A stretch of DNA of 64,000 nt from Malacoraja senta (Eukaryota), in assembly GCA_038087875.1 (NCBI GenBank), contig CM075992.1, positions 9,922,001 through 9,986,000 of the forward strand. The letters are read 5' to 3'. Under the pieces are notes generated by a model. That model had not been told where the DNA came from. It was given only the letters and a program-made list of their open reading frames with translations, and did not search any database. The position numbers were made by a program, and so were the translations under genes. Every line of letters starts with the position of its first letter. Positions within the stretch are counted from its first letter, which is position 1. This document shows positions 4,434 to 62,220 of the stretch, one piece after another.

Positions 4434-4633
4434 NNNNNNNNNNNNNNNNNNNNNNNNNNNNNNNNNNNNNNNNNNNNNNNNNNNNNNNNNNNNNNNNNNN
4501 NNNNNNNNNNNNNNNNNNNNNNNNNNNNNNNNNNNNNNNNNNNNNNNNNNNNNNNNNNNNNNNNNNNNNNNNNNNNNNNNNNNNNNNNNNNNNNNNNNNN
4601 NNNNNNNNNNNNNNNNNNNNNNNNNNNNNNNNN
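4434..4633. other. Assembly gap (200 N)
   Basis: Run of exactly 200 N, typical of a scaffolding join. Confidence 0.98.
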
Positions 4634-4959: not shown

Positions 4960-5100
4960 CTCTGGATAGGGTGGATGTGGAGAGGATGTTTCCACTAGTG
5001 GGAGAGTCAAGGATCAGAGGCCAGAGACTCAGAATTTAAGGACATACCTTTATAAAAGTGTTGAAGAGGAATTTCTTTAGTCAGAGGGTGGTGAATCTCG
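4960..5100 (+). mobile_element. CR1/HER1 LINE 3' ORF2 fragment
   Basis: Encodes LDRVDVERMFPLVGESRIRGQRL..FFSQRVVNL-like CR1 C-terminal motif. Confidence 0.75.
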
Positions 5101-5176
5101 TGTGCGGACATGGCGTCGAAGGACGAGAAGCCGAAGCAAAGAAGTGGAAGCCAAAAAAACGAACGGATACAAAGCT

Positions 5177-5340
5177 AAAACACCAACTAACTGAAAGGGC
5201 GGGACGCCTAAAAGCCAACTAACCGAAAGGCTGCATCGCCTAAAAGCAAACTCACCGAAAGGCCGCTCTGCCGAAACACCAACTAACCGAAAGGCTGCGT
5301 CGCCAACAAGCCAACTAACTGAATGGCCGCTCAGCCGAAA
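5177..5340. repeat. ~32-bp tandem array (about 5 units), unclassified
   Basis: Units resemble AAAAGCCAACTAACCGAAAGGCTGCGTCGCCG; CpG-rich. Confidence 0.85.
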
Positions 5341-5466
5341 AGTCTAATAACGGACATGACGTCACCGGGGGACGGGACTTGTCAGCGATTGGTCCAGACC
5401 CCCGCGTCCATCACATCACTGGCCGATTGAGATGGGATGGTGGGGGTCATTTTCCCACACAAGTGT

Positions 5467-5910
5467 AGCATTTCCAGCGGTGGCAAGGGAGCGGTCTCCC
5501 CTGTTTGCTTTCCGCAGAGACCGCTCCCTCCATAACTCCCTGGTCAATTCGTCCCTTCCCACCCAAACCACCTGCCACTTTCCCTTGCAACCACAGGTAA
5601 TGCTACACTTGTCGTTTTACCTCCCCCCTTGACTCCATTCAGGGACCCAAGCAGTCTTTCCAGGTGCGGCAGAGGTTCACCTGCACCTCCTCCCACCTCA
5701 TCTATTTCATCCGCTGCTCTAGGTGTCAGCTGCTCTACATCGGTGAGACCAAGCGTAGGCTTGGCGATCGCTTCGCCCAACACCTCCACTCGGTTTGCAA
5801 TAACCAACCTGATCTCCCAGTGGCTCAGCACTTCAACTCCCCCTCCCATTCAGAATCCGACCTTTCTGTCCTGGGCCTCCTCCATGGCTAGAGTGAGGCC
5901 CACCGTAAAT
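5467..5910 (+). mobile_element. Penelope-like element, GIY-YIG endonuclease fragment
   Basis: ORF 5664-5891: LIYFIRCSRCQLLYIGETKRRLGDRFAQH...PVAQHFN, the PLE-type GIY-YIG domain. Confidence 0.9.
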
Positions 5911-6087
5911 TATACTAAAAATCCATCTGAAATAGTCTGTAGGCTGAGGAGATGGTTGAGTTAAGCATATTGGTGGGTTTAAAGTCACATATAGTAGAAA
6001 CTGGTAAGGACAACAAACTTAATGTCCTGGCATGAACCAAAAGGATACTTGCATTAGTCTACCTTGCATTAGTCCTGTAGCTTTTTG

Positions 6088-6125
6088 TCCATCCATCCGT
6101 CCATCCATCCATCTCTATCTATCTA
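6088..6125. repeat. (CCAT)n/(CTAT)n microsatellite
   Basis: ccatccatccgtccatccatccatctctatctatcta. Confidence 0.85.
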
Positions 6126-6504
6126 TATTACTAAAAGTCTGATCTTGACCGCTTTTGGCCCACTCTAGTGTGATTTCCGAGAGAGCGCCGCCACCTACGG
6201 CCGTCATTTTTGGCCACCTCGCGCAGAGCCCAAGTCCGCCTTCCTGGACCAGAGGATTATTCCCATTGATGAAAAATCAGAGAGATATTAATGTTTTTAA
6301 AAAATTCACCATTCTCTTTGCTGCCCCTGCTGGAAGGAGGGGGAGGGACTATAAAACCAGGAAGTGGCGTGCCTCACTCAGTCTCTGCAAGATGGAGGAA
6401 GTCAGAGGGTCACGTCTCTCTGAGCTCTGAATAACACTGAACACATGTCTACTCAACTGTGAGTCCCCTTAATGTGGTTTGAAAATGAAAATATGCTTGG
6501 TTTG

Positions 6505-6740
6505 AAGTAAAAAGGCACTACTGCAAATGGTGGTTTGGGTGCTTTGGGTTGGTGTAAAAAGGTACTACTGCAAATGGTGGTTTGGGTGCTTTGGGTAGAA
6601 ATTAAAAGGCACTACTGCAAATCGTGGTTTGGGTGCTTTGGGTTGAAGTTAAAAGGCACTACTGCAAATGGTGGTTTGGGTGCTTTGGCTTGAAGTTAAA
6701 AGGCACTACTGCAAATGGTGGTTTGAGTGCTTTGGGTAAC
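6505..6740. repeat. ~47-bp minisatellite inside Helitron A (~5 units)
   Basis: AAAAGGCACTACTGCAAATGGTGGTTTGGGTGCTTTGGGTTGAAGTT repeated. Confidence 0.95.
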
Positions 6741-7104
6741 TTCCTGTTTGCACTGTATATTGATTTTAGATAAAAACACTACCACTTACGGCTGTGATTT
6801 TTGGCCATCTTACTCAGTCCCCCTCCACTCAGCAGGTGCAGAGGATTCTTCCCATCAATGAAAAATAAAAGTGTTATCAGTGTTTAAAAAATGTTGAGAA
6901 TCTCTCTCCTGTCAATCACACCATGAAAGCCACACCTTTTCCAGAGGGAGGGGTTATAAAACCTGGAAGTGTGGGTGTGGCTCAGTCTCTGCATGATGGG
7001 GGAAGGGAGAGGTCACGACTCTGTCTGAGCTGTGAATTAACTGAACACACTGAATGTCTACTGAACTGTGAGTTTGGTGTTTTGTGTGGTTTTATGGTGG
7101 TTTC

Positions 7105-7645
7105 ACCTTGCTTGAAATGGTATGAACTGCATTTGAATGTGGTGGCCTTGCACCCTCCATGAAATGGTATGAAACTGCATTTGAATGTGGTGGCGTTGCA
7201 CCCTGCATGAAATGGTATGAAGCTGCATTTGAATTTGGTGGCCTTGCACCCTGCTTGAAATGGTATGAAACTGCACTTGAATTTGGTTGCCTTGCACCCT
7301 GCTTGAAGTGGAATGAAACTGCACTTGAATTTGGCGGCCTTGCACCCTGCTTGAAGTGGTATGAAACTGCACTGAATTTGGTGGCCTTGCACCCTGCTTG
7401 AAGTGGTATGAAACTGCACTGAATTTGGTGGCCTTACACCCTGCTTGAAGTGGTTGGAAACTGCACTTGAATTCGGTGGCTTTGCATCCAGCTTGAAGTG
7501 GTAGGAAACTGCACTTGAATTTGGTGGCCTTGCACCCTGCTCGAAGTGGTAAGAAACTGCACTTGCATTTCGTGGCCTTGCACCCTGCTTGAAATGGTAG
7601 GAAATGGATTTGACTTTGGTGGCCTTGCACCCTGCTTGAAATGGA
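7105..7645. repeat. ~50-bp minisatellite inside Helitron A (~10-11 units)
   Basis: GAAATGGTATGAAACTGCACTTGAATTTGGTGGCCTTGCACCCTGCTT repeated; explains the repetitive ORFs at 6982-7853. Confidence 0.95.
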
Positions 7646-7872
7646 ATTTCAAGGAATAGCCATGAGTCAACTGCCAGCCCACCAGCCGTGAGTGAGCTGC
7701 CAGCACATCAGGCTTGAGGGACTGAGCTGCCACCCCAAGAACCCATACCAGCTCTCCAGAAAGCCCCCCCCACTGGTCACCAATTTTGGAATTGGTGGAG
7801 AGGTGGAATATTGCGTCGGGGGACCAGCCCTCCCGTGCGTACATGGGACCCAACGGGTTCCACTTAGTCTAG

Positions 7873-10184
7873 TACATAACTAAAACTCTCATCTTGTCCT
7901 CTTCCAGTTTGTGTTGATTTTACATTTGCGCAAAAACGGTACCCGATAGCACTACAATTATTTGCCACCTTTCTCACAATTCCCCTGTGCAGCAAATGCA
8001 CCAAGTTGTGTTCCGATCGGTGGAATATTACAGAAGTTATTAAGGTTTAAAAATCATAAAAACCGAGCATGCACAGATTGGTTTCATCTTCTGTCAGCAG
8101 ATTGGTCTTACCTCCAGTCTGTCGCCGGAATGCCAACGCCCCTTCTGGCACCCGCTGTCAATCACCTGTGGCGAGGAGAATAAAACTGAAGGAGCGGAGT
8201 GAGGAGAGCGAGTGGGGGTTGTGTCTGCGTCCACCACGACGAGCCGGGAGCCGTTGAGTGAGGCCGGAGGTCGGGGGCTGGGAGCTGGGAGCCATTGAGT
8301 GCGCCAGGGCAGGAGCCGGTGAGTGCGGCCGGAGCTGGAGCTGGGGCCAGAAGCCGTTGAGTGCAGCCGAGGCCGGGAGCTGAATGAGTGGCAATTGAGC
8401 CGGATTCAGGATCCGCCGAGTGAGGCCGGGGCAGGGACCAGGAGTGCGCTGAGTGAGTCCGGAGCCGGGGCTGGGATCCGTGAGTAAGGCCGGGGCCCGA
8501 GTCAGGAACTGCTGAGTGAGGCCGGAGCCATAGCCAAGAGCCGTTGAGTGAGGCCGGAAACAGGGCCAGGATACGCTGTATGAGGCGAGAACCGGAGCCG
8601 TTAAGTGAGGCCGGAGCCAGGGCCGGGAGACGCTGCATGAGGCCGGGGCCAGGAGCCATCCCGGTCCCAAGCTGCAGGATACTCCCCACTGGTTCCCGCA
8701 TGAAGCCGGAGGGCAGCGAAAGGCCACGGCAGTGGAGGCCACATCAGTGATATGCCACGCCAGTGGCAGCGGTAGGCCACGGCAGCAGCAGGCCATGGCA
8801 GTGCTAGGCCTCGACAGGCCCCGTCTGAAGCCGTCCCTGCCCCGTCTCCAGAACATTCCTGCCAGCCCCACCTAAAGCCATCCCCGTCCCCAGCTGCATT
8901 CCATTCGGCACACAAGACCCGTACTAGCCCAAGAAAAGTAAATTCGGCCTACATTGTCTGTACTAGCCCTCCAGAAACCAGTCCCTGCAGCCCACAACAC
9001 CTGGTCTAGCGCAAGTACTAGCCCGGCTACAGAACGTTCCCGCCGGCCACTGCCTGAAGCCATCCCCATCCCCAGCTGCAGGGCGCAACCCCACCAGCCC
9101 CCGTCTGAAGCCGACCCCCTCCCCCAACTATACGACGCTGTCCCCCCCCACTGGCTCCCGCCTGAAAGTGCCCCCCTTCCCCGGCTACAGGACCTTCCCC
9201 CCCTGCCACCGGCACCCGACAGCCCCCGCCTGAAGCCGTCCCCCTCCCCCAGCTGCAGGACGCTTCCCACCCCCGCCACTGGACCCCACCTGAAGCCGTC
9301 CCCCTCTAGGATCTAGGACCCCCCGCTGGCCCCCGCCTGATGCTGTCCCGTCCCCAGCTGCAGGACGCAACCCCACCAGCCTCCGTCTGAAGCCGACCCC
9401 CACCCCCAACTATACGACGCTACCCACTGCCGGAAGCCGTTTCCGGCTACAGGACGCTCCCACCGGCCCCGGATGGCCCCCGCCGGTCCCCCCCTGCAGC
9501 CGTCTCCCTTCCCCAGCTGCAGGATGCTCCCCCCCCGGCTCCCGCCTGAAGCCATCCCACTCCCGAGTCTACAGGATGCTCCTGCCAGTCCCCACCTGAA
9601 GTCGTTCCCGTCGTCAGCTGCAGGATTCTTCCCATCCCTCCCCCCACCCCCCACCAGCAGCCGACACCCTTCCCCGGCTACAAAATGCTTCCCCCCCCAC
9701 CACCAGAAGCCGTCCCCGTCCCAGGCTACAGGACGCTCCCCCACCCCTCCCCCATGGCCACCAACAGCAACAAGAAAGAATGGACTGAATACATCTCATC
9801 TTTAACGTTTAAATTGATGTTAAATTTTAAGTTATTCACATTTTCAGCTTTGATACTTCCCATTTTCACTTGCCGTGCCAGCGCAGTAATACCTGCATGT
9901 TCTATGTCGCAATGGGAACCCAATGGGCGGGAATGGCTGCGCCGCCGGATAGCCACTAAGAGTGGATGGGGGGGGGGGGGTTGAGGAGGGATGGGGTGGG
10001 GGGGGTGGTGGGAAGGGCAAGGGGCAGAGTGGGGGGTAGGGGAGGAAGGGGTACCAGGGGCAGCACAACGGGAACCCGTCAGCCACGCCTGCGCAATTGG
10101 GGGCTATGCGTGAGTGGTAGAATATTGCGATGGGAACCAGGCCTCCCTTGTGACAATGGGAGCCATCGAGACCCACTTAGTCAA
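7873..10184 (+). mobile_element. Non-autonomous Helitron-like element, unit B
   Basis: Starts TACATAACTAAAACTCTCATCTTG (cf. A: TATATTACTAAAAGTCTGATCTTG). Its last ~60 bp (GAATATTGCG..GGAACCAGGCCTCCC..TGGGAGCC-ATC-GAGACCCACTTAGT) are homologous to the 3' end of A. Confidence 0.7.
8235..9760. repeat. GC-rich degenerate minisatellites inside Helitron B
   Basis: 8235-8680 has GAGCCGTTGAGTGAGGCCGGAGC-type units; 8820-9760 has CCTGAAGCCGTCCCC..CCCAGCTGCAGGAC-type units. Confidence 0.85.
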
Positions 10185-11260
10185 TAGGTGCAGGAGTAGG
10201 CCATTTGGCCCTTCGAGCCAGCACCGCCATTCAATGTGATCATGGCTGATCATCCCCAATCAATACCCCGTTCCTGCCTTCTCCCCATATCGCCTGACTC
10301 CGCTATTTTTTAAGAGCCCTATCTAGCTCTCTCTTGAAAGTATCCAGAGAACCTGCCTCCACCGCCCTCTGAGGCAGAGAATTCCACAGACTCACAACTC
10401 TTTGTGAGAAAAAGTGTTTCCTCGTCTCCGTTCGAAATGGCTTACTACTTATTCTTAAACTGTGGCCCCCGGTTCTGGACTCCCCCAACATCGGGAACAT
10501 GTTTCCTGCCTCTAGTGTGTCCAAGTCCTTAACAATCTTATATGTTTCAATTAGATGCCCTCTCATCCTTCTAAACTCCAAGCCAAGCTGATCCATTCTC
10601 TCAGCATATGACAGTCCCCGCCATCCGGGAATTAACCTTGTAAACCTACGCTGCATTCCCTCAATAGCAAGAATGTCCTTCCTCAAATTAGGGGACCAAA
10701 ATTGCACACAATACTCCAGGTGTGGTCTCACTAGGGCTCTGTACAACTGCAGAAGGACCTCTTTGCTTTTATATTCGATTCCTCTTGTTATAAAGGCCAA
10801 CATGCCATTCACTTTCTTCACTGCCTGCTGTACCTGCAAGCTTACTTTCATAGACTGATGTACAAGGACCCCAGATCCCGTTGTACTTCCCCTTTTCCCA
10901 ACTTGACGCTATTTCTATAGTAATCTGCCTTCCTGTTTTTGCTACCAAAGTGGATAACCTCACATTTATCCACATTAAACTTCATCTGCCATGCATCTGC
11001 CCACTTCCCCAACCTGTCCAAGTCACCCTGCATTCTCAGAGCATCCTCCTCACAGTTCACACTGCCACCTAGCTTTGTGTCATCTGCAAATTTGCTAATG
11101 TTACTTTGACTCCATTCATCCAAATCATTGATGTATATTGTAAATAGCTACAGTCCCAACACCGAGCCTTGCGGTACCCCACTTGTCATTGCCTGCCATT
11201 CTGAAAGGGACCCGTTAATCCATACTCTTTGTTTCCTGCCTGCCAACTAGATAGTCTATC
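10182..11260 (-). mobile_element. CR1/HER1 LINE, 5'-truncated, frameshifted RT/C-terminus
   Basis: ORFs 10848-11123 (KFADDTKLGG) and 10303-10851 (LYRALVRPHLEYCVQFWSP); 3' tail at 10182-10300; flanking TAGTCAA repeat at 10178-10184 and 11261-11267. Confidence 0.95.
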
Positions 11261-11268
11261 TAGTCAAG

Positions 11269-11700
11269 TACATAACTAAAACTCTGATCTTGTGCTCTTC
11301 CGGTTTGCACGACCTTTCTATTTGTGCAAATGCGGTGCGCGAGAGCGCTACGATTTTTCACCAGCTCACTCACCGTTCTCCTGTGCTGCAAGTGCACCAG
11401 GTTTTGTTCCGATTGGTGGTCTACTGTAACAGTTTGTGAGGTTTAAACATCTTAAAAACCGTACGTGCGCAGATCGATCTCCTCTCCTGCCAGTCAGCGT
11501 CGCGCGGATTGGTCTTTTCCCCTGTCACTACCCAGAACGGTCCGCCCCTTCCTGCGCCATCGCGTCTTTACTGGAGCTGAGGATGGCCGGCGGAGATCTT
11601 CCACCGGACACAATTTTCGCACCGCGCGCGGGAGATGTCGCCAAATGGAAAGCGGATACTCTGATCAACCAGCGACCAGCGCCCACTGTGAATCCCCATC
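11269..11700 (+). mobile_element. Helitron-like unit C, 5' portion (3' end not found)
   Basis: TACATAACTAAAACTCTGATCTTGTGCTCTTCCGGTTTG... aligns with the first ~250 bp of unit B. Confidence 0.65.
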
Positions 11701-12004
11701 ATACCGCCAGTTCCAGCCCCTTCCCCTCTGGTCCCCCTCGCTGGCTCCTGCCCGCCTCCCCCATGATACCCCCCTCTCCTCCACAACCTCCGTCTTTTCT
11801 CTGAGCTCTCTCCCCCCCTCCGCCCACACCCGCCCCTCCCCCTACAACCTCCCCGCCACCCACACACACCCCTTCACCCATTCCTTCTCTCCAGAGATGC
11901 TGCTTGTCACGCTGAGTTACTCCAGCATTTTGTGTCTACATTTGGCCCACCAAGTCTACACTCACTATTAATCAATCGTTCTCATTTTTGCTATGTTATC
12001 CTAA

Positions 12005-12200
12005 TCCCTACACATTAGGGGCAATATTACAAAGGACATTCAACCTACAAACCCATATAACTTTGAGATATGATAGGAAAATGGTGGAAACCCATGTGAT
12101 CACAAGGCAAATGTGCAAACTCCATACAGACAGCACCCCGAGGTCAGGATCGAACCCAGGTCTCCGGCGCTATGTGGTTCTACCAACTGTGCCATGGCGC
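12005..12200 (-). mobile_element. Degenerate HE1-like SINE
   Basis: CAAACTCCATACAGACAGCACC..GGTCAGGATCGAACCCAGG motif. Confidence 0.7.
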
Positions 12201-13049
12201 CCTCTCATGATATTAACTGTATTATTCTCCTGAAATGGTTTACATGATTGGAAATAATCCATTTTCCTTCCGAGATGTCAAATAAATTAGAGATCAAGTT
12301 GCAAATAAGAACAATTGGTACTGGTAGTGATCACTGAGTAACCATAAAAGAAAATCAAAATGAAGACCAGATGGAAGACATCCAGTAGCATTCAGGACAT
12401 GGAATAAGACTGGGAGGAGTTGTGAATGAAGAATCATTCACAGTTCATTACAAGCAGGACCAGCAACCAATGACTGGGAAAACAACAGATCCTGCTCCAG
12501 TTTTTTGCAAGAAGGTTAAAAGTATGATCTTAGAAATTCCAGGACTGTTAGCTTAACCTCAACAGCAGGAAAAACACTGGAGTGAATTTTAAAGAAAACA
12601 TTTGAACTTAACAACAGTAAAAGAAGTAATTACAAACTAGTGTGGGCTAATGGAAAATAGTTCATGCCTTTCAAACTTAATAGACTCCTTTTTACTTAAT
12701 AAAATTCTCAGAAGCAGGAGAAACGTGTACAAGGGTGACAGTGTGGTTTCATAACTTCACTGCCAGAAGGTATTTGATGAGGCCACTCACAAGACAGTCC
12801 TTAAGGATGAAATAATTGGTGTTTTTTGGTAACCAATTTTAGTAGAAACCAAAGGGAAGGCGTTGCCGATTCATTATTTTTCATAAAATGGCTTTTCCTC
12901 AAATTGCTGCAAGTTGCTTTATGTTAATCATTCATTATTATTTAATACCAAATGATTGATGTTGTGATTGCCTACAATTGAGTAAATTATTGGCAGTCAA
13001 TGAAAATATTTTTTTTTAAACTGGAATAAATGTGGTGAATGCCTTAACA

Positions 13050-20679: not shown

Positions 20680-21792
20680 CAGACTATTGACCGACATCTA
20701 CTACAAACCTACTGACTCCCATAGCTATTTTGACTACAGTTCTTCCCAACCTGCTTCCTGTAAAGACTCTATCCCCTACTCACAATTCCTCCAAGCTGCA
20801 TCTGCGCCCAGGATGAGGTGTTCCATACCAGGACCTGTCCTCATTCTTTAGGAAATGGGGGTTCCCCTCTTCCATTATAAATGATACTCTCACTAGGGTC
20901 CTCGACATCCCGCAGCCCCGCTCCGCTCTTACTCCCCCTCACCCCATTTTTAACAAGGACAGTGTCCCCCTTGTCCTCACCTTCCACCCCATCAGCCGTC
21001 GCTTACAGCATATAATCCTCCAACATTTTCGCCACCTCCAACGGGATCCCACTACTGACCACATCTTCCCATCTCCACCCCTTTCTGCTTTCCGCAGAGA
21101 CCGTTCCCTCCGAAACTCCCTGGTCAACTAGTCCCTTCCCACCCAAACCACCCTCTCCCAAGAAAACTTTCCCCTGCAACCGCAGGAGATGCAACACCTG
21201 TCCCTTTACCTCCCCCCTCGACTCCATCCAAGGACACAAACAGTCTTTCCAGGTAAGGCAGAGGTTCACTTACAGCTCCTCCAACCTCATCTACTGTATC
21301 CGCTGTTCCAGGTGTCAACTTCTCTGCATCGGCGAGACCAAGCGCAGGCTCAGCGAACGTTTCGCTGAACACCTCCGCTCAGTCCGTCTTAACCTACCTG
21401 ATCTCCCGGTGGCTCAGTACTTCAACTCCCCCTCCCATTCCCATTCCCAATCTGACCTTTCTGTCGTGGGCCTCCTCCATTGTCAGAGTGAGGCCCAGTG
21501 CAAATTGGAGGAACATCACCTCATATTTTGCTTGGGTAGCTTACACCCCAGCGGTATGAACATTGACTTCTCCAACTTCAGATAACCCTAGCTTTCTCTC
21601 TCTATCCCCTCTCATTCCCAGTTCTCCCACTAGTCTTTCTGACTCCGACTACATTCCATCTTTGTCCCACCCCCTCCCTTGACATCTGTCTGAAATAGAT
21701 GATGTCTCCTTCAGACTGATCTTCTGTCGCCCGTTCTTTCTCTCCAGGAGATGCTGCCTGTCCCGCTGAGTTACTCCAGCATTTTGTGTCCA
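20680..21792 (+). mobile_element. Penelope-like element: RT C-terminus, GIY-YIG and 3' repeat
   Basis: TDIYYKPTDSHSY..SIPYSQF, then NLIYCIRCSRCQLLCIGETKRR..VAQYFN..EEHHLIFCLGSLHPSGMNIDF; ends in the GAGATGCTGCC..TTACTCCAGCATTTTGTGTC repeat. Confidence 0.9.
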
Positions 21793-49139: not shown

Positions 49140-49560
49140 GACATGCGGGGTGAGGACGAGCGGACTTCCGGCGCGGCGGGCGGGCGGCCATGTTGGTGAG
49201 GGCGTGACCTCTGGCCCGGAAGTGCAGGTGGTTTGTGTACACTGGAGGGAAGATGGCGGAGGGCGCGGAGTCGGTCGCTGGGCCCGAGGCAGAGGCGGGC
49301 TCCGGTCCGGCGGAGCCCGGCCACGCCGCAGCCAAGGCGTCCAAGAGGGGCCGCGGGCGGCCGAGGCTGAGCGATAGCGACCGCATGCGGCAGCGGGTCA
49401 ACAGCCGCAAGAAGTACGACAACCGGCGCATCTACATCGGCGAGTCGTTCGCGGTGTGGGCGGCGCTGCGGGAGCGCTACGGCTGGTCCGACAAGCGGTT
49501 GGCGGAGCATCTGGTGCAGCTGGAGCAGCGGCCGAGGTGAGGGCGTCCGGCCTGGCCATG
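49140..49560. promoter_or_regulatory. CpG-island promoter of the ZNF653-like gene
   Basis: Very high CpG density. ETS/GABP sites ACTTCCGG (49164-49171) and CCGGAAGTG (49216-49224); YY1-like GCGGCCATGTTG (49184-49195) and AAGATGGCGG (49250-49259). Confidence 0.85.
49253..49536 (+). CDS. ZNF653: ZNF653-like protein, coding exon 1 (AT-hook plus conserved N-terminal domain)
   Basis: MAEG..KRGRGRPRLSDSDRMRQRVNSRKKYDNRRIYIGESFAVWAALRERYGWSDKRLAEHLVQLE resembles the recalled ZNF653 N-terminus (RGRPRL..SRKKYD.RR.Y.GE..GWSD..LA). Kozak AAGATGG; donor AG|GTGAGG (phase 2). Orthologue versus paralogue is unresolved. Confidence 0.85.
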
Positions 49561-58253: not shown

Positions 58254-60980
58254 ACCCATTCTCTCTCGAGAGAGATGCTGCCTGTCCCGCTGAGTTACTC
58301 CAGCATTTTGTGTCTACTTTTGATTTAAACCAGCATCTGCCGCTCTTTCCTACACATGGTATAGTTACAAATGCATACTTTGATACTTGGTGGTGATCCA
58401 GTTCCAGTCATTTGTAGGTTAGCAACGTTCAGTGTTGAACGACATTGGTGAACTTAATTGCGGTCAGTAGATGAGAGGACATAGCGACTTTTGCTGGGTC
58501 AGAAACTCTGTTCCACAGCAACACAGTGAATCTTTTGTTATCGATGTTGTAATGCAACAAGTTATTTTCAGCCAGGTAATGAACATCAAAAAACCCCCCT
58601 GCAAATGCTGGATATTTAAAACAAAAAGAGGAAAAAAATTTAAAAGAAAATGCTGAGTCAAAAACAGCATCAAATTGTCTTCTCACTTTAAACTCACTCC
58701 AACATTTTGTAACAGAAAACATTTGCAGCAGACAGAGAGAGAGAATTAATGTTTTAGATCAAAGACGCCTTATCAGAACAGGAAAGGAAGATTTCCACCA
58801 TTTTCCTTTTTCCGTTCTTAACCCATAGGTTTACTGCCAGTGGAGCCCATTTAAAATCCAGGCAACTATCAAATGAAACTGTCGGAATCGAATGTGTAGG
58901 ACATCCATGCTTTCCAGTCCAGTGATCCCAGATACTGGCTATATATTTAGCTAATTCCCCATGGTTGCTGAGGGAAGGCTATGAACAATTACAAAGAACA
59001 TTTGCCATGGTTATTTCTGCCAAAATTGTGAATCTTCTTTGTAACACAGGCCAAAGAAATCTGGCCCTGTGCAGAATGATGGGGTTAATTTTCACTGACC
59101 CTGGGTGCTTTTTCATTTAATCTATTTTTCCATTCACTTCTTGAAGCTTTCATGTTGGTGGATTGCAGTCTTATTGCTTAATACAATTTGAATTGACTCA
59201 AAAGTCATAACTGACTAATTGTGTTTCTACAAAGTTGATTTTGTGGTTTAACAGTTACTTTGTGTGGCATTATGTAATAGATTTTTTGCTGCATAGCTGC
59301 AATTTTCCCACGTTGTGGAATTCTCAATCCGTAATAAGACCCAAGGACTCAAATCATTAACCATCAGTTGTTTTAATTTACTTGAACAAGATGAGATGTG
59401 TCTCAGTCAAAGACTGATCACATCTCCAATGTTAGTAGCCACAACAGGATATTTATACACCAAGAAAACGATTTTTGATCAAGTAGATCAATGTGTTAAT
59501 CACATTGCTGAGTTTGCATTAATTACCCAGGTTGTACAATATTGTGTCAAGCATCCCATTAGGCTTTGCGACACTAAAGGTTTTACTTCTACATAACTCA
59601 TGACGATGGGAGCCAAGAAAACCAATTTCTTTAAATTGTGACATGGGATGGGTTAGTGTGCTCAGAATTCTTACCTTGTATTACCCCTTGTTAAGTGTAT
59701 TAGGTTGTTTCAAAAGTTTGGATATGGCATTGGATTTTAATTATTCAATTTAGCTTGAATGAAAATATGGAAAATAATTGGGGGAAAAAATTGGTGATAA
59801 TTAGAAACCACAGATGTTGCTTGACCTGCTGAGTGTTTCCAGATTTTTTTTAAATTATGCAAGATACTTAATAACTTAAAGCTTTCACACTGAAAGATCT
59901 GGTGAGTGCTGGTGTAGAAACTTGTAATATGTTGACACTGTGTACAAACTTTGCACACTTCTGGTCAAATGGCAGCATTTTGAGATTAAAGCTGCTATCT
60001 CATTTAACCAAGGATTTATTGGGGTGATGCAGAGTTGCAATACATAGATCAGAAATTCTGCGTCAAATCCCTTATCTGTTCACAGTTATTTAAATTCTGT
60101 GCTGATGAACATCGGTTTTCCTGAGGGTAATCACAAAATGCTGGAGTAACACAGGCAGCATCTCTGGAGAGAACCTTCTTCAGACAGAGTTTTCCTGAGG
60201 ATCTTTATACTCAAAAAATGAGAAATCAGATGATGAAATAAAAGCAGAAAATATTGGAGATATGCAAAGGATAAAGCAATATCTGTGGAAATAGATTAAA
60301 TATTTCTGGTTCTAAACCCATAGGAAGAGCTCTCTTCACAGATGCTGCCTTAATTGCTGAGTGTTTTGAGCATTTTCTGTATTTTATTATTTCATCACAC
60401 AGGTTATTGATTTAAATCAGCATTTATTCTCATTGAGTCCAACTCAAGGACAAGATTGTGATGGGTAAACTACCAGGAGAGGAAAGGTACAGCAACAAGT
60501 GACCAAAGCCTGTAGATGTGTTATATGAGCTGCCATGATTTACAGTGATAATGCACTGCCAAAATCATTGAACAGGATCCAGTCTTGGAGGACAAAAGAG
60601 CAAATCCAATACAACACACTGGTGCTGTGATAAATCATGATTTGGGCCACGTTCCAGAGAGGGAAGGTAAATAGTTTTCAGTGTCTAAACCATGTAGACC
60701 CTGTTTTTGACCAATTTGGAGACTAAAAGGATTACAGATCGTGGGTATTGTAGCTTAACCCCATTGCATCATGAGGTCATCCTAATGTCTTTGTTAGCTG
60801 TAACTTACTGCCAAAGACTGCATGTCACACCTGGCAGAACTTCTCTCAGGTGGGTGAGGGTAGTACTAGCTTCCCATCCAATTTCTGAAAATGTTGTATA
60901 TCGGAATAAAATAATAATGGTCTGAGCAACCTCACAGGAACGTTCACACTGTTAAGTTGACTTCTCTGGTTTGCCCACAG

Positions 60981-61910
60981 TAAGAAAGCATGCAGTTAGC
61001 TCGTTGAAGACTCTGGTGGTGTGGTACGAGCACCATAAGCAGACATGCAAGCAGGAACCATTGCTGTATGAACTTCAACAGATGTGTGACTGCTCGGTGG
61101 CTGTGGTGTGGCAATGTGAGGCAGGCCACCAGTATCTACACCACATGGAGCCTGTGCAGAACACCTGCCATTCCCCTGCCGCTGAACCCATCGTCAAGAG
61201 CAAGCTGACCATCAGCAACTCGGAGGAAAATCTGAATCAGCAGCAGTGCGTTGTGGAGAAAAAGAAGAGCAAGAACAAAAGGAATGCAATCAGAAAGAAA
61301 CCAGGGCTGTCCAATGAAATGTACATGAAGTGTGAATCAGACACGTCGACTTGTGATGAATCTGATTCGGATCAGAAATTCAAGGAATATTTCAATGTGA
61401 AACTCATTGATGTCGAAGCCAATCAACCCAGTTATGGAGGTGGAAATAAAGTGAATGGCAAGCCACAAGCCTTGAGTTCGGGAGGGGAATCTTCCAAAGT
61501 GGAAGGGCAAAACGGAGAGCCTGAGAGGACTGCAATTGATGAGCCAGCATCTTCATGCCGAACTCAGTCACCGTGCAAGAATTCCATTGTTGAAGACAAT
61601 ACCCCTTCGTTGGCAGCAGAGCTTCCAACGTTGAATACTCTAGTACAGACTGTTGGGAAGGATGCATTGTACTCCTTAACTACCAATTGCCCAGTAACTG
61701 TGCAGATTTCTACGGTACAGAGTTCAGAAATCACCAGCATTACAGAAGAATTTGGACAAGTGCCCTTGGACACTGCACAACAAGTAAATCCTGCTGAATA
61801 TGAGGAAATGACTTGTACTTTCTCAGAACAGTTGACCTACGTAAATCCAGTGGCTGAATGCTACACCATTGAAGAACAGAATGAAGCTACAGAGTGGAAT
61901 GACCATCCAG
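60981..61910 (+). CDS. ZNF653: ZNF653-like coding exon 3 (Cys/His motif plus acidic low-complexity region)
   Basis: Acceptor CTTCTCTGGTTTGCCCACAG|. SLKTLVVWYEHHKQTCKQEPLLYEL..VWQCEAGHQY matches the recalled ZNF653 WYEDH..C..EP.L.EL..VWQCEAGH motif. Likely donor CAG|GTACTA at 61911; the ORF otherwise stops at 61939. Confidence 0.85.
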
Positions 61911-62220
61911 GTACTACTTCACCATTTCATATATTTTAACTGCAATGGGCATTCTTTCATTCACTTTTCCATCTTTTTTGTCAGTTACAAGAATTGCTAA
62001 TACAATTCTTGTTATGTTAACAAGCCTTTGTTTGCATTGTGGGTGTTCATGCCACTTTCTTATTAAAGTCAGAATATAGTTTACCTTTCCCAAGCAAAGT
62101 CCTCACAAGCACATGCACGATCAATGTGACTCAAAGCATTGAATAGTTTCAGAATTTGGAAAGACAATTTGGCTGATATTTGAATGACAAATCATTTTGC
62201 ATTACAATCTCCTCTAACAG

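Follow-up and report, generated by a model that had tools for sequence, protein, structure and literature searches.

The DNA considered here is a stretch of 64,000 nucleotides from Malacoraja senta (contig CM075992.1 of assembly GCA_038087875.1, positions 9,922,001 to 9,986,000), referred to below as the window. From position 6122 onwards, it carries a head-to-tail array of three related units, A, B and C. These are canonical non-autonomous Helitrons, as judged by a 5' TC, a 3' CTRR end, a terminal hairpin, the lack of terminal inverted repeats (TIRs) and target-site duplications (TSDs), and membership of a dispersed family. The array is probably a serial nest, in which the three elements, all in the same orientation, were inserted one into another at a single fixed internal site. 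The initial annotation had described a composite element, built either by rolling-circle end bypass or by the targeting of one Helitron by another. A nest describes the array better than a head-to-tail composite does, and nothing indicates that A, B and C ever moved together.

Ends and junctions of the three units

Unit A (6122..7872, plus strand) measures 1,751 bp and would be the youngest of the three. At the locus, its left end reads A6121|TC6122 and its right end CTAG7872|T, with a terminator hairpin at 7844..7862 (plus strand); the limits first proposed for this unit, namely A|TC, hairpin and CTAG|T, are thus borne out. The hairpin is 19 nt long, with an 8-bp stem containing one G-T mismatch and a 3-nt loop, and lies 10 nt from the CTAG end. 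By the canonical definition, a Helitron has a hairpin of 16-20 nt located 10-15 nt from its 3' end (PMC13286980). Judged by folding energy, the unit A hairpin does not stand out from chance (z -0.47, with an equally good fold in 57 of 200 shuffles), and a scan for hairpin plus CTRR|T returned three matches within the window. The support for this terminus is therefore provided by the contig data on the family given below.

Unit B extends from its base 5 to a decayed 3' terminator (7873..10184, plus strand), and unit C, likewise from base 5, is present as a remnant (11269..11873, plus strand). The 3' CTRR|T end is found in A as CTAG|T, is damaged in B and is missing in C. The A/B and B/C junctions have the same register, with 31 of 33 bases identical. 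Over the first 31 bases, A agrees with B and with C at 25 positions each, and B with C at 29. Further into the 5' side, B and C remain homologous (174/230, 76%; score 174 against a shuffle maximum of 28), and A resembles the other two strongly for only about 30 nt (scores 32 and 33 for A-B and A-C; shuffle maxima 28 and 26). At their 3' ends, A and B are identical at 58 of 74 positions (score 61; shuffle maximum 26). The interiors are unrelated, with scores of 32, 22 and 27 lying near the shuffle maxima of 29, 27 and 34, and the minisatellites inside them differ too. The array thus holds the three related units at the coordinates and with the motifs first described, including their common 5' ends, the 3' end common to A and B, and the differing interiors.

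At the B/C junction, a 5'-truncated long interspersed nuclear element (LINE), presumably of the CR1 type, lies on the minus strand in the last bases of unit B (10178..11267). The remaining bases of B follow it at 11261..11268 (plus strand) and end with G11268. At the DNA level, this LINE is 77-79% identical to two other copies in the window across some 1.1 kb, and the open reading frame (ORF) of the copy at 52076-53098 matches the Pfam family RVT_1. Both its boundaries are blurred by microhomology, and a short palindrome is located at 11248-11262; the microhomology between the LINE and the Helitron end was observed at both junctions (10173-10190 and 11247-11270). The initial annotation had restored the B/C junction by removing the LINE along with one copy of TAGTCAA. 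The near-identity of the join so obtained stands at 31/33. The 7-bp TAGTCAA duplication, in turn, is ambiguous, as its left copy also matches the LINE tail and its right copy the LINE body, and comparison of the boundaries of 10178..11267 did not establish a clean 7-bp TSD. The 3' end of B can accordingly be reconstructed in two ways, giving CAAG if the 7-bp duplication is accepted, or CTAG if a small deletion is assumed.

TIRs were not found for A or B, the alignment of one end against the other scoring 10 in both cases, and the terminal 60 nt on one side showed no inverted repeats with those on the other. No TSD was found either, the flanks of the locus, compared by themselves and without an empty site, overlapping by no more than 2 nt. 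A transposon with TIRs and TSDs, which would have spoken against the initial annotation, was rejected on these grounds. Helitron2 or Helentron elements have asymmetric terminal inverted repeats and insert in T(T/C) or TT (PMC13085455). This class was rejected in view of the A|T target, the CTAG end and the terminal 60 nt devoid of inverted repeats.

The three units have no further copies in the window, and the family evidence comes from public contigs of two related organisms (runs X1 and X5), aligned to positions 7660-8235 (576 bp). The runs of these organisms contain under half of the words sampled from 5915-8235. The contigs aligned to these 576 bp number 12,323 in X1 and 12,119 in X5, figures which are not copy numbers. 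Among the loose-end rows listed (12 of 914), 107 contigs of X1 and 92 of X5 leave the alignment behind 7873, and 128 of X1 behind 7874; their flanks past the A-type end are unrelated and AT-rich (agreement 0.41-0.42). This pile-up of loose ends with unrelated flanks marks the A-type end as a terminus, at CTAG|T, of dispersed copies. In both contig sets, 98% of the depth has C in place of T at position 7859, which renders the hairpin perfect in the family majority; the hairpin of B is decayed.

On the other side of the junction, 84 contigs of X1 have loose ends before 7873, with a median of 253 nt, again among the rows listed. These ends give an AT-rich, heterogeneous consensus (agreement 0.45) that terminates in ATCTA. 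Solo B-type copies start with A|TCTA, followed by the very base at which unit B begins here. Unit B at this locus therefore lacks four bases, TCTA, and not just the TC that the initial annotation had found wanting in the internal units. Its view that these starts are incomplete holds, with the missing part given as TCTA by family data for B and by analogy for C. A target A is thus seen next to the 5' TC in unit A itself and in the family of B (X1 only).

Two weak hints of further junctions were obtained. Record 1 of X1 spans 7845-8030, yet has only 28 letters on the A side, where 31 were asked for; in X5, two contigs join 7837 to 7873. Among the rows listed (40 of 153), at least 7 sites in 213 nt of A and at least 32 in 363 nt of B differ from the family, counts not usable as an estimate of divergence. 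It was also observed that sampled words of 5915-8235 occur at 0.42-0.49 in 20 runs of eight organisms. The families of the array may be widespread among relatives.

The junctions also bear on a rolling-circle concatemer or a local tandem duplication of one element that later diverged. Tandem arrays of rolling-circle Helitrons are reported (PMC5876387, PMC12628747), and the 5' ends of A, B and C are indeed related. However, circle junctions are precisely CTAG|TC (PMC4778049, PMC13286980), whereas TCTA is missing here, and the interiors are unrelated, with B and C only 76% alike even where they can be aligned. Such an origin is extremely improbable, and the concatemer was rejected as a candidate, the array lacking the precise CTAG|TC junctions of one template.

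Two TCTA stubs and the probable order of insertion

Directly 5' of the TC of unit A stand exactly two TCTA units (6114-6121), which the initial annotation had overlooked. The inner one (6118..6121, plus strand) would be the first four bases of unit B, and its final A is the target A of unit A's A|T. The outer one (6114..6117, plus strand) would be the first four bases of unit C. Among the 159 TCTAT sites of the window, a single one is preceded by TCTATCTA, and it is this locus; the frequency of TCTA in the window is 0.0035.

The stubs suggest the following course. Unit C would have been the first arrival. Unit B would then have inserted into C at the A|T between its bases 4 and 5 (TCTA|T), and unit A would later have inserted into B at the same A|T of B's 5' end. 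Each event could be an ordinary Rep-Hel strand transfer, with the transposase probably supplied in trans, joining the 5' TC to the target A and the CTAG-3' to the target T with no duplication. Every insertion would displace a TCTA stub upstream, and the resulting order would be the stub of C, the stub of B, A, the body of B and the body of C. An allele from before the insertion of A would read one stub fewer, TCTA|TACATAAC. We infer this order of events, the origin of the outer stub in C and the cause of the repeated use of the site. The targeting of one Helitron by another, one of the two options first offered, gains support from the family ends and the lack of TIRs and TSDs.

The same TCTA units can be read differently, as an unrelated microsatellite or as a part of the start of A's own family, with A having inserted merely beside Helitrons that were already clipped at their 5' ends. 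In its favour, the stubs lie next to a (TCCA)n tract, an extra TC is present beside them, and TCTA may stem from the family start of A. This reading, however, requires two independent clippings of exactly TCTA, and also the chance occurrence of TCTA twice upstream, at one of 159 TCTAT sites and with the frequency given above. It is considered unlikely.

As for the choice of the target under serial nesting, the transposase bound to the left end of the resident element, that is, to its origin, most likely captures the nearest top-strand A|T, with the AT-rich sequence behind it helping. Alternatively, the site may be a hotspot through its base composition alone. Of the 20 nt behind the insertion site, 75% are A or T. 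Unit B contains about 87 A|T sites and the C remnant about 24 (the split site counted), with two orientations each. If all sites were equal, the use of the first A|T in the same orientation twice would have a chance of about 1 in 8,000, given landing in the older element. The true odds are less extreme, because Helraiser favours AT-rich DNA and the 3' side of this site is 75% AT. Helraiser is known to prefer AT and AT-rich DNA, the preference being strongest on the 3' side of the insertion, without local hopping, and no report of a preference for resident ends was found in the accessible text (PMC4778049). The determinants of its cleavage are found in the terminal 40 bp, and in vitro it cuts at an internal AT of the left end on the bottom strand (PMC4778049). 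This internal cutting makes an origin-guided capture plausible, though it does not demonstrate it.

The decay of the units hints at the same order, with A the youngest and C the oldest, and gives no dates. The hairpin of A is one base off that of the family. The hairpin of B deviates at four of 19 positions from the family type and no longer folds, and B is invaded by the LINE; C is without a 3' end. Minisatellite matches stand at 90-91% in A and 69-78% in B.

The state of the terminators is also relevant to end bypass, in which the transposase would start from the TC of A, run through the terminators of A and B and capture the downstream units as a composite A-B-C. Helraiser has been shown to bypass its 3' end, and such bypass is also seen in bats (PMC4778049); A alone keeps a TC start in place. 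On the other hand, bypass copies the downstream DNA that already exists and cannot make a CTAG|T junction onto a start devoid of TCTA. It predicts a weak first and an intact last terminator, whereas here A is intact, B decayed and C has none. Many A-type family ends among the rows listed stop at CTAG|T with unrelated flanks, and the two stubs are left unexplained. This option of the initial annotation is contradicted by the form of the junction and the pattern of the terminators, and is very improbable. The end-bypass composite was rejected as a candidate, as the intact terminator belongs to the first unit and the last unit lacks a 3' end.

Several points weigh against serial nesting. There is one locus with two events, both of the two junctions lying at the same offset. 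The B/C join had to be reconstructed across a LINE, and in the first reconstruction its end reads CAAG, not CTRR. The base before the outer stub at 6114, and hence before unit C, is a C instead of an A, unless the start of C lies at 6112. The extra TC at 6112..6113 (plus strand), following A6111, has no explanation; it may be the start of C, which would then read TCTCTA, or a product of slippage. The stubs adjoin the (TCCA)n tract, and slippage could alter their number. The family start of A could itself carry TCTA extensions, as the two-5'-termini model from Fusarium allows (PMC5148889). Finally, the TCTA row before 7873 is from X1 only and comes without per-base agreement, the runs of both organisms containing less than half of the words sampled from the locus.

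Inner modules, limits and surroundings

Unit A contains two 5'-type modules with 71% identity, each followed by an array of its own. The first (6191..6464) precedes a 47-bp minisatellite at 6497..6737 (5.1 copies, 91% matches), and the second (6745..7073), which is without the first 30 or so nucleotides of a Helitron start, precedes a 48-bp minisatellite at 7104..7644 (11.4 copies, 90% matches); all four are on the plus strand. Unit A may itself be a chimera having two 5' termini. The degenerate minisatellites inside unit B are GC-rich (69-78% matches).

Unit C is homologous to unit B up to about 11493 and is cut off at 11874 by an abundant short repeat. Its 3' end was not found anywhere in the window, and unit C is therefore a remnant. 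Position 11700, taken earlier as the limit of the array, is not a boundary.

The (TCCA)n tract upstream of the nest (6088..6111, plus strand) is perfect at 6100-6111, and its unit differs by one base from the TCTA stub unit. Runs of at least three TC[CT]A units occur in the window only at 6100-6111 and in the adjoining TCTA run. The tract may be a host microsatellite that served as the first target, or it may consist of older stubs. Further upstream, just before the nest (5101-5612), there is a 32-bp array of 4.8 copies together with a 32-nt inverted repeat (5459-5490/5581-5612). An assembly gap of 200 N at 4434-4633 lies 1.5 kb upstream of the nest, and there is none inside it.

The window as a whole is repeat-rich eukaryotic DNA with many LINE fragments; its LINEs and short interspersed nuclear elements (SINEs) are of types that we take to resemble those of cartilaginous fishes. 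Two fragments, 5498-5911 and 21078-21506, are 82% identical, and the frame 21016-21585 presumably resembles the GIY-YIG endonuclease of Penelope-like retroelements (no Pfam match). Two probable host exons are found on the plus strand. One of them, 49208-49540, begins with an AT-hook-like stretch and is assumed to resemble the start of ZNF653-like zinc-finger proteins; the other, 60956-61939, is a frame of 327 aa without a Pfam match.

Relation to known Helitrons and implications

With a 5' TC, a 3' CTAG, a hairpin about 10 nt from the end, an A|T target and neither TSDs nor TIRs, the units resemble Helitrons of the Helitron1 type such as Helibat/Helraiser (PMC4778049) and Xuan-Feng of wheat (PMC13286980). 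They are also like other canonical non-autonomous Helitrons in that the long ORFs tested encode no transposase. No Helitron Pfam family was found in the nine array ORFs scanned (of 14 with at least 120 aa). Among 18 ORFs of the window, Pfam likewise gave no Helitron family, and reverse-transcriptase matches were limited to three LINE ORFs outside the array and one match below the cutoff. Outside the N gap, stop-free frames in the window reach at most 340 aa, as against 1,496 aa for Helraiser (PMC4778049). Rfam gave no match in 5000-13000, and motif scans of metagenome, viral and prokaryote genome contigs gave none either.

Unlike in the accounts available for Helraiser and Xuan-Feng, two successive insertions are found here at one and the same A|T inside the left end of another Helitron. 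In the maize r1 locus (PMC2267711) and in bats (PMC4778049), different Helitrons are likewise joined 3' to 5' by consecutive insertion and not by replication. In those cases, however, the junction is CTAG|TC and the second element is whole (offset 0), whereas here the offset is 4, the element is split and its stub lies upstream. Self-inserted Helitrons with multiple 5' termini are known from Fusarium and Metarhizium (PMC5148889, PMC13342296). Those elements differ in being non-canonical (Helitron2-like) and having duplicated 5' pieces of 31-85 nt, and the accessible text of the two papers describes no fixed site or stub tally. The rolling-circle arrays of plant centromeres (Xiong et al. 2016, cited in PMC12628747) have several 5' ends per array, as here, where unit A also holds a second, clipped 5' module. 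They are, however, repeats of one truncated template, whereas the interiors of A, B and C are unrelated. Conserved ends around central arrays, as in A and B, are an ordinary feature of Helitrons and Helentrons with internal minisatellites (PMC12628747).

Helitron self-insertion near 5' ends has thus already been published, while a fixed site with a stub tally was not found described. No account of an offset-4 site with a tally of TCTA stubs was found in the accessible parts of the Helitron literature (including PMC3789558, PMC11934779, PMC12001565 and PMC8547701), in which subscription journals and repeat databases are thinly covered; such cases may be present in the supplementary material of PMC4778049 (Fig. 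4A, B) and in that of PMC5148889 (Table S6, Figs S12-13).

Beyond an AT step, little is understood of how Helitrons select their targets, and where they stand head to tail, the junction is often taken as a trace of rolling-circle replication or bypass. The present locus offers a simple diagnostic for a third route: the downstream element has lost the bases at its start, and these are found upstream of the first element. A wider proposal, which we put forward only tentatively and regard as somewhat doubtful, is that the Rep-Hel of this lineage systematically targets the first A|T in the left ends of resident Helitrons, across families, building ordered stacks in which (TCTA)n gains one unit with each insertion. 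If true, such microsatellites, perhaps the TCCA tract too, would be transposition counters and not products of slippage, and the choice of target would be tied to origin binding. If the arrangement is only local, it is a tidy yet ordinary nested pile. If it is general, it would tie target capture to origin recognition in a way open to testing, allow Helitron families to be ordered in time, and trace some tetranucleotide microsatellites to transposons.

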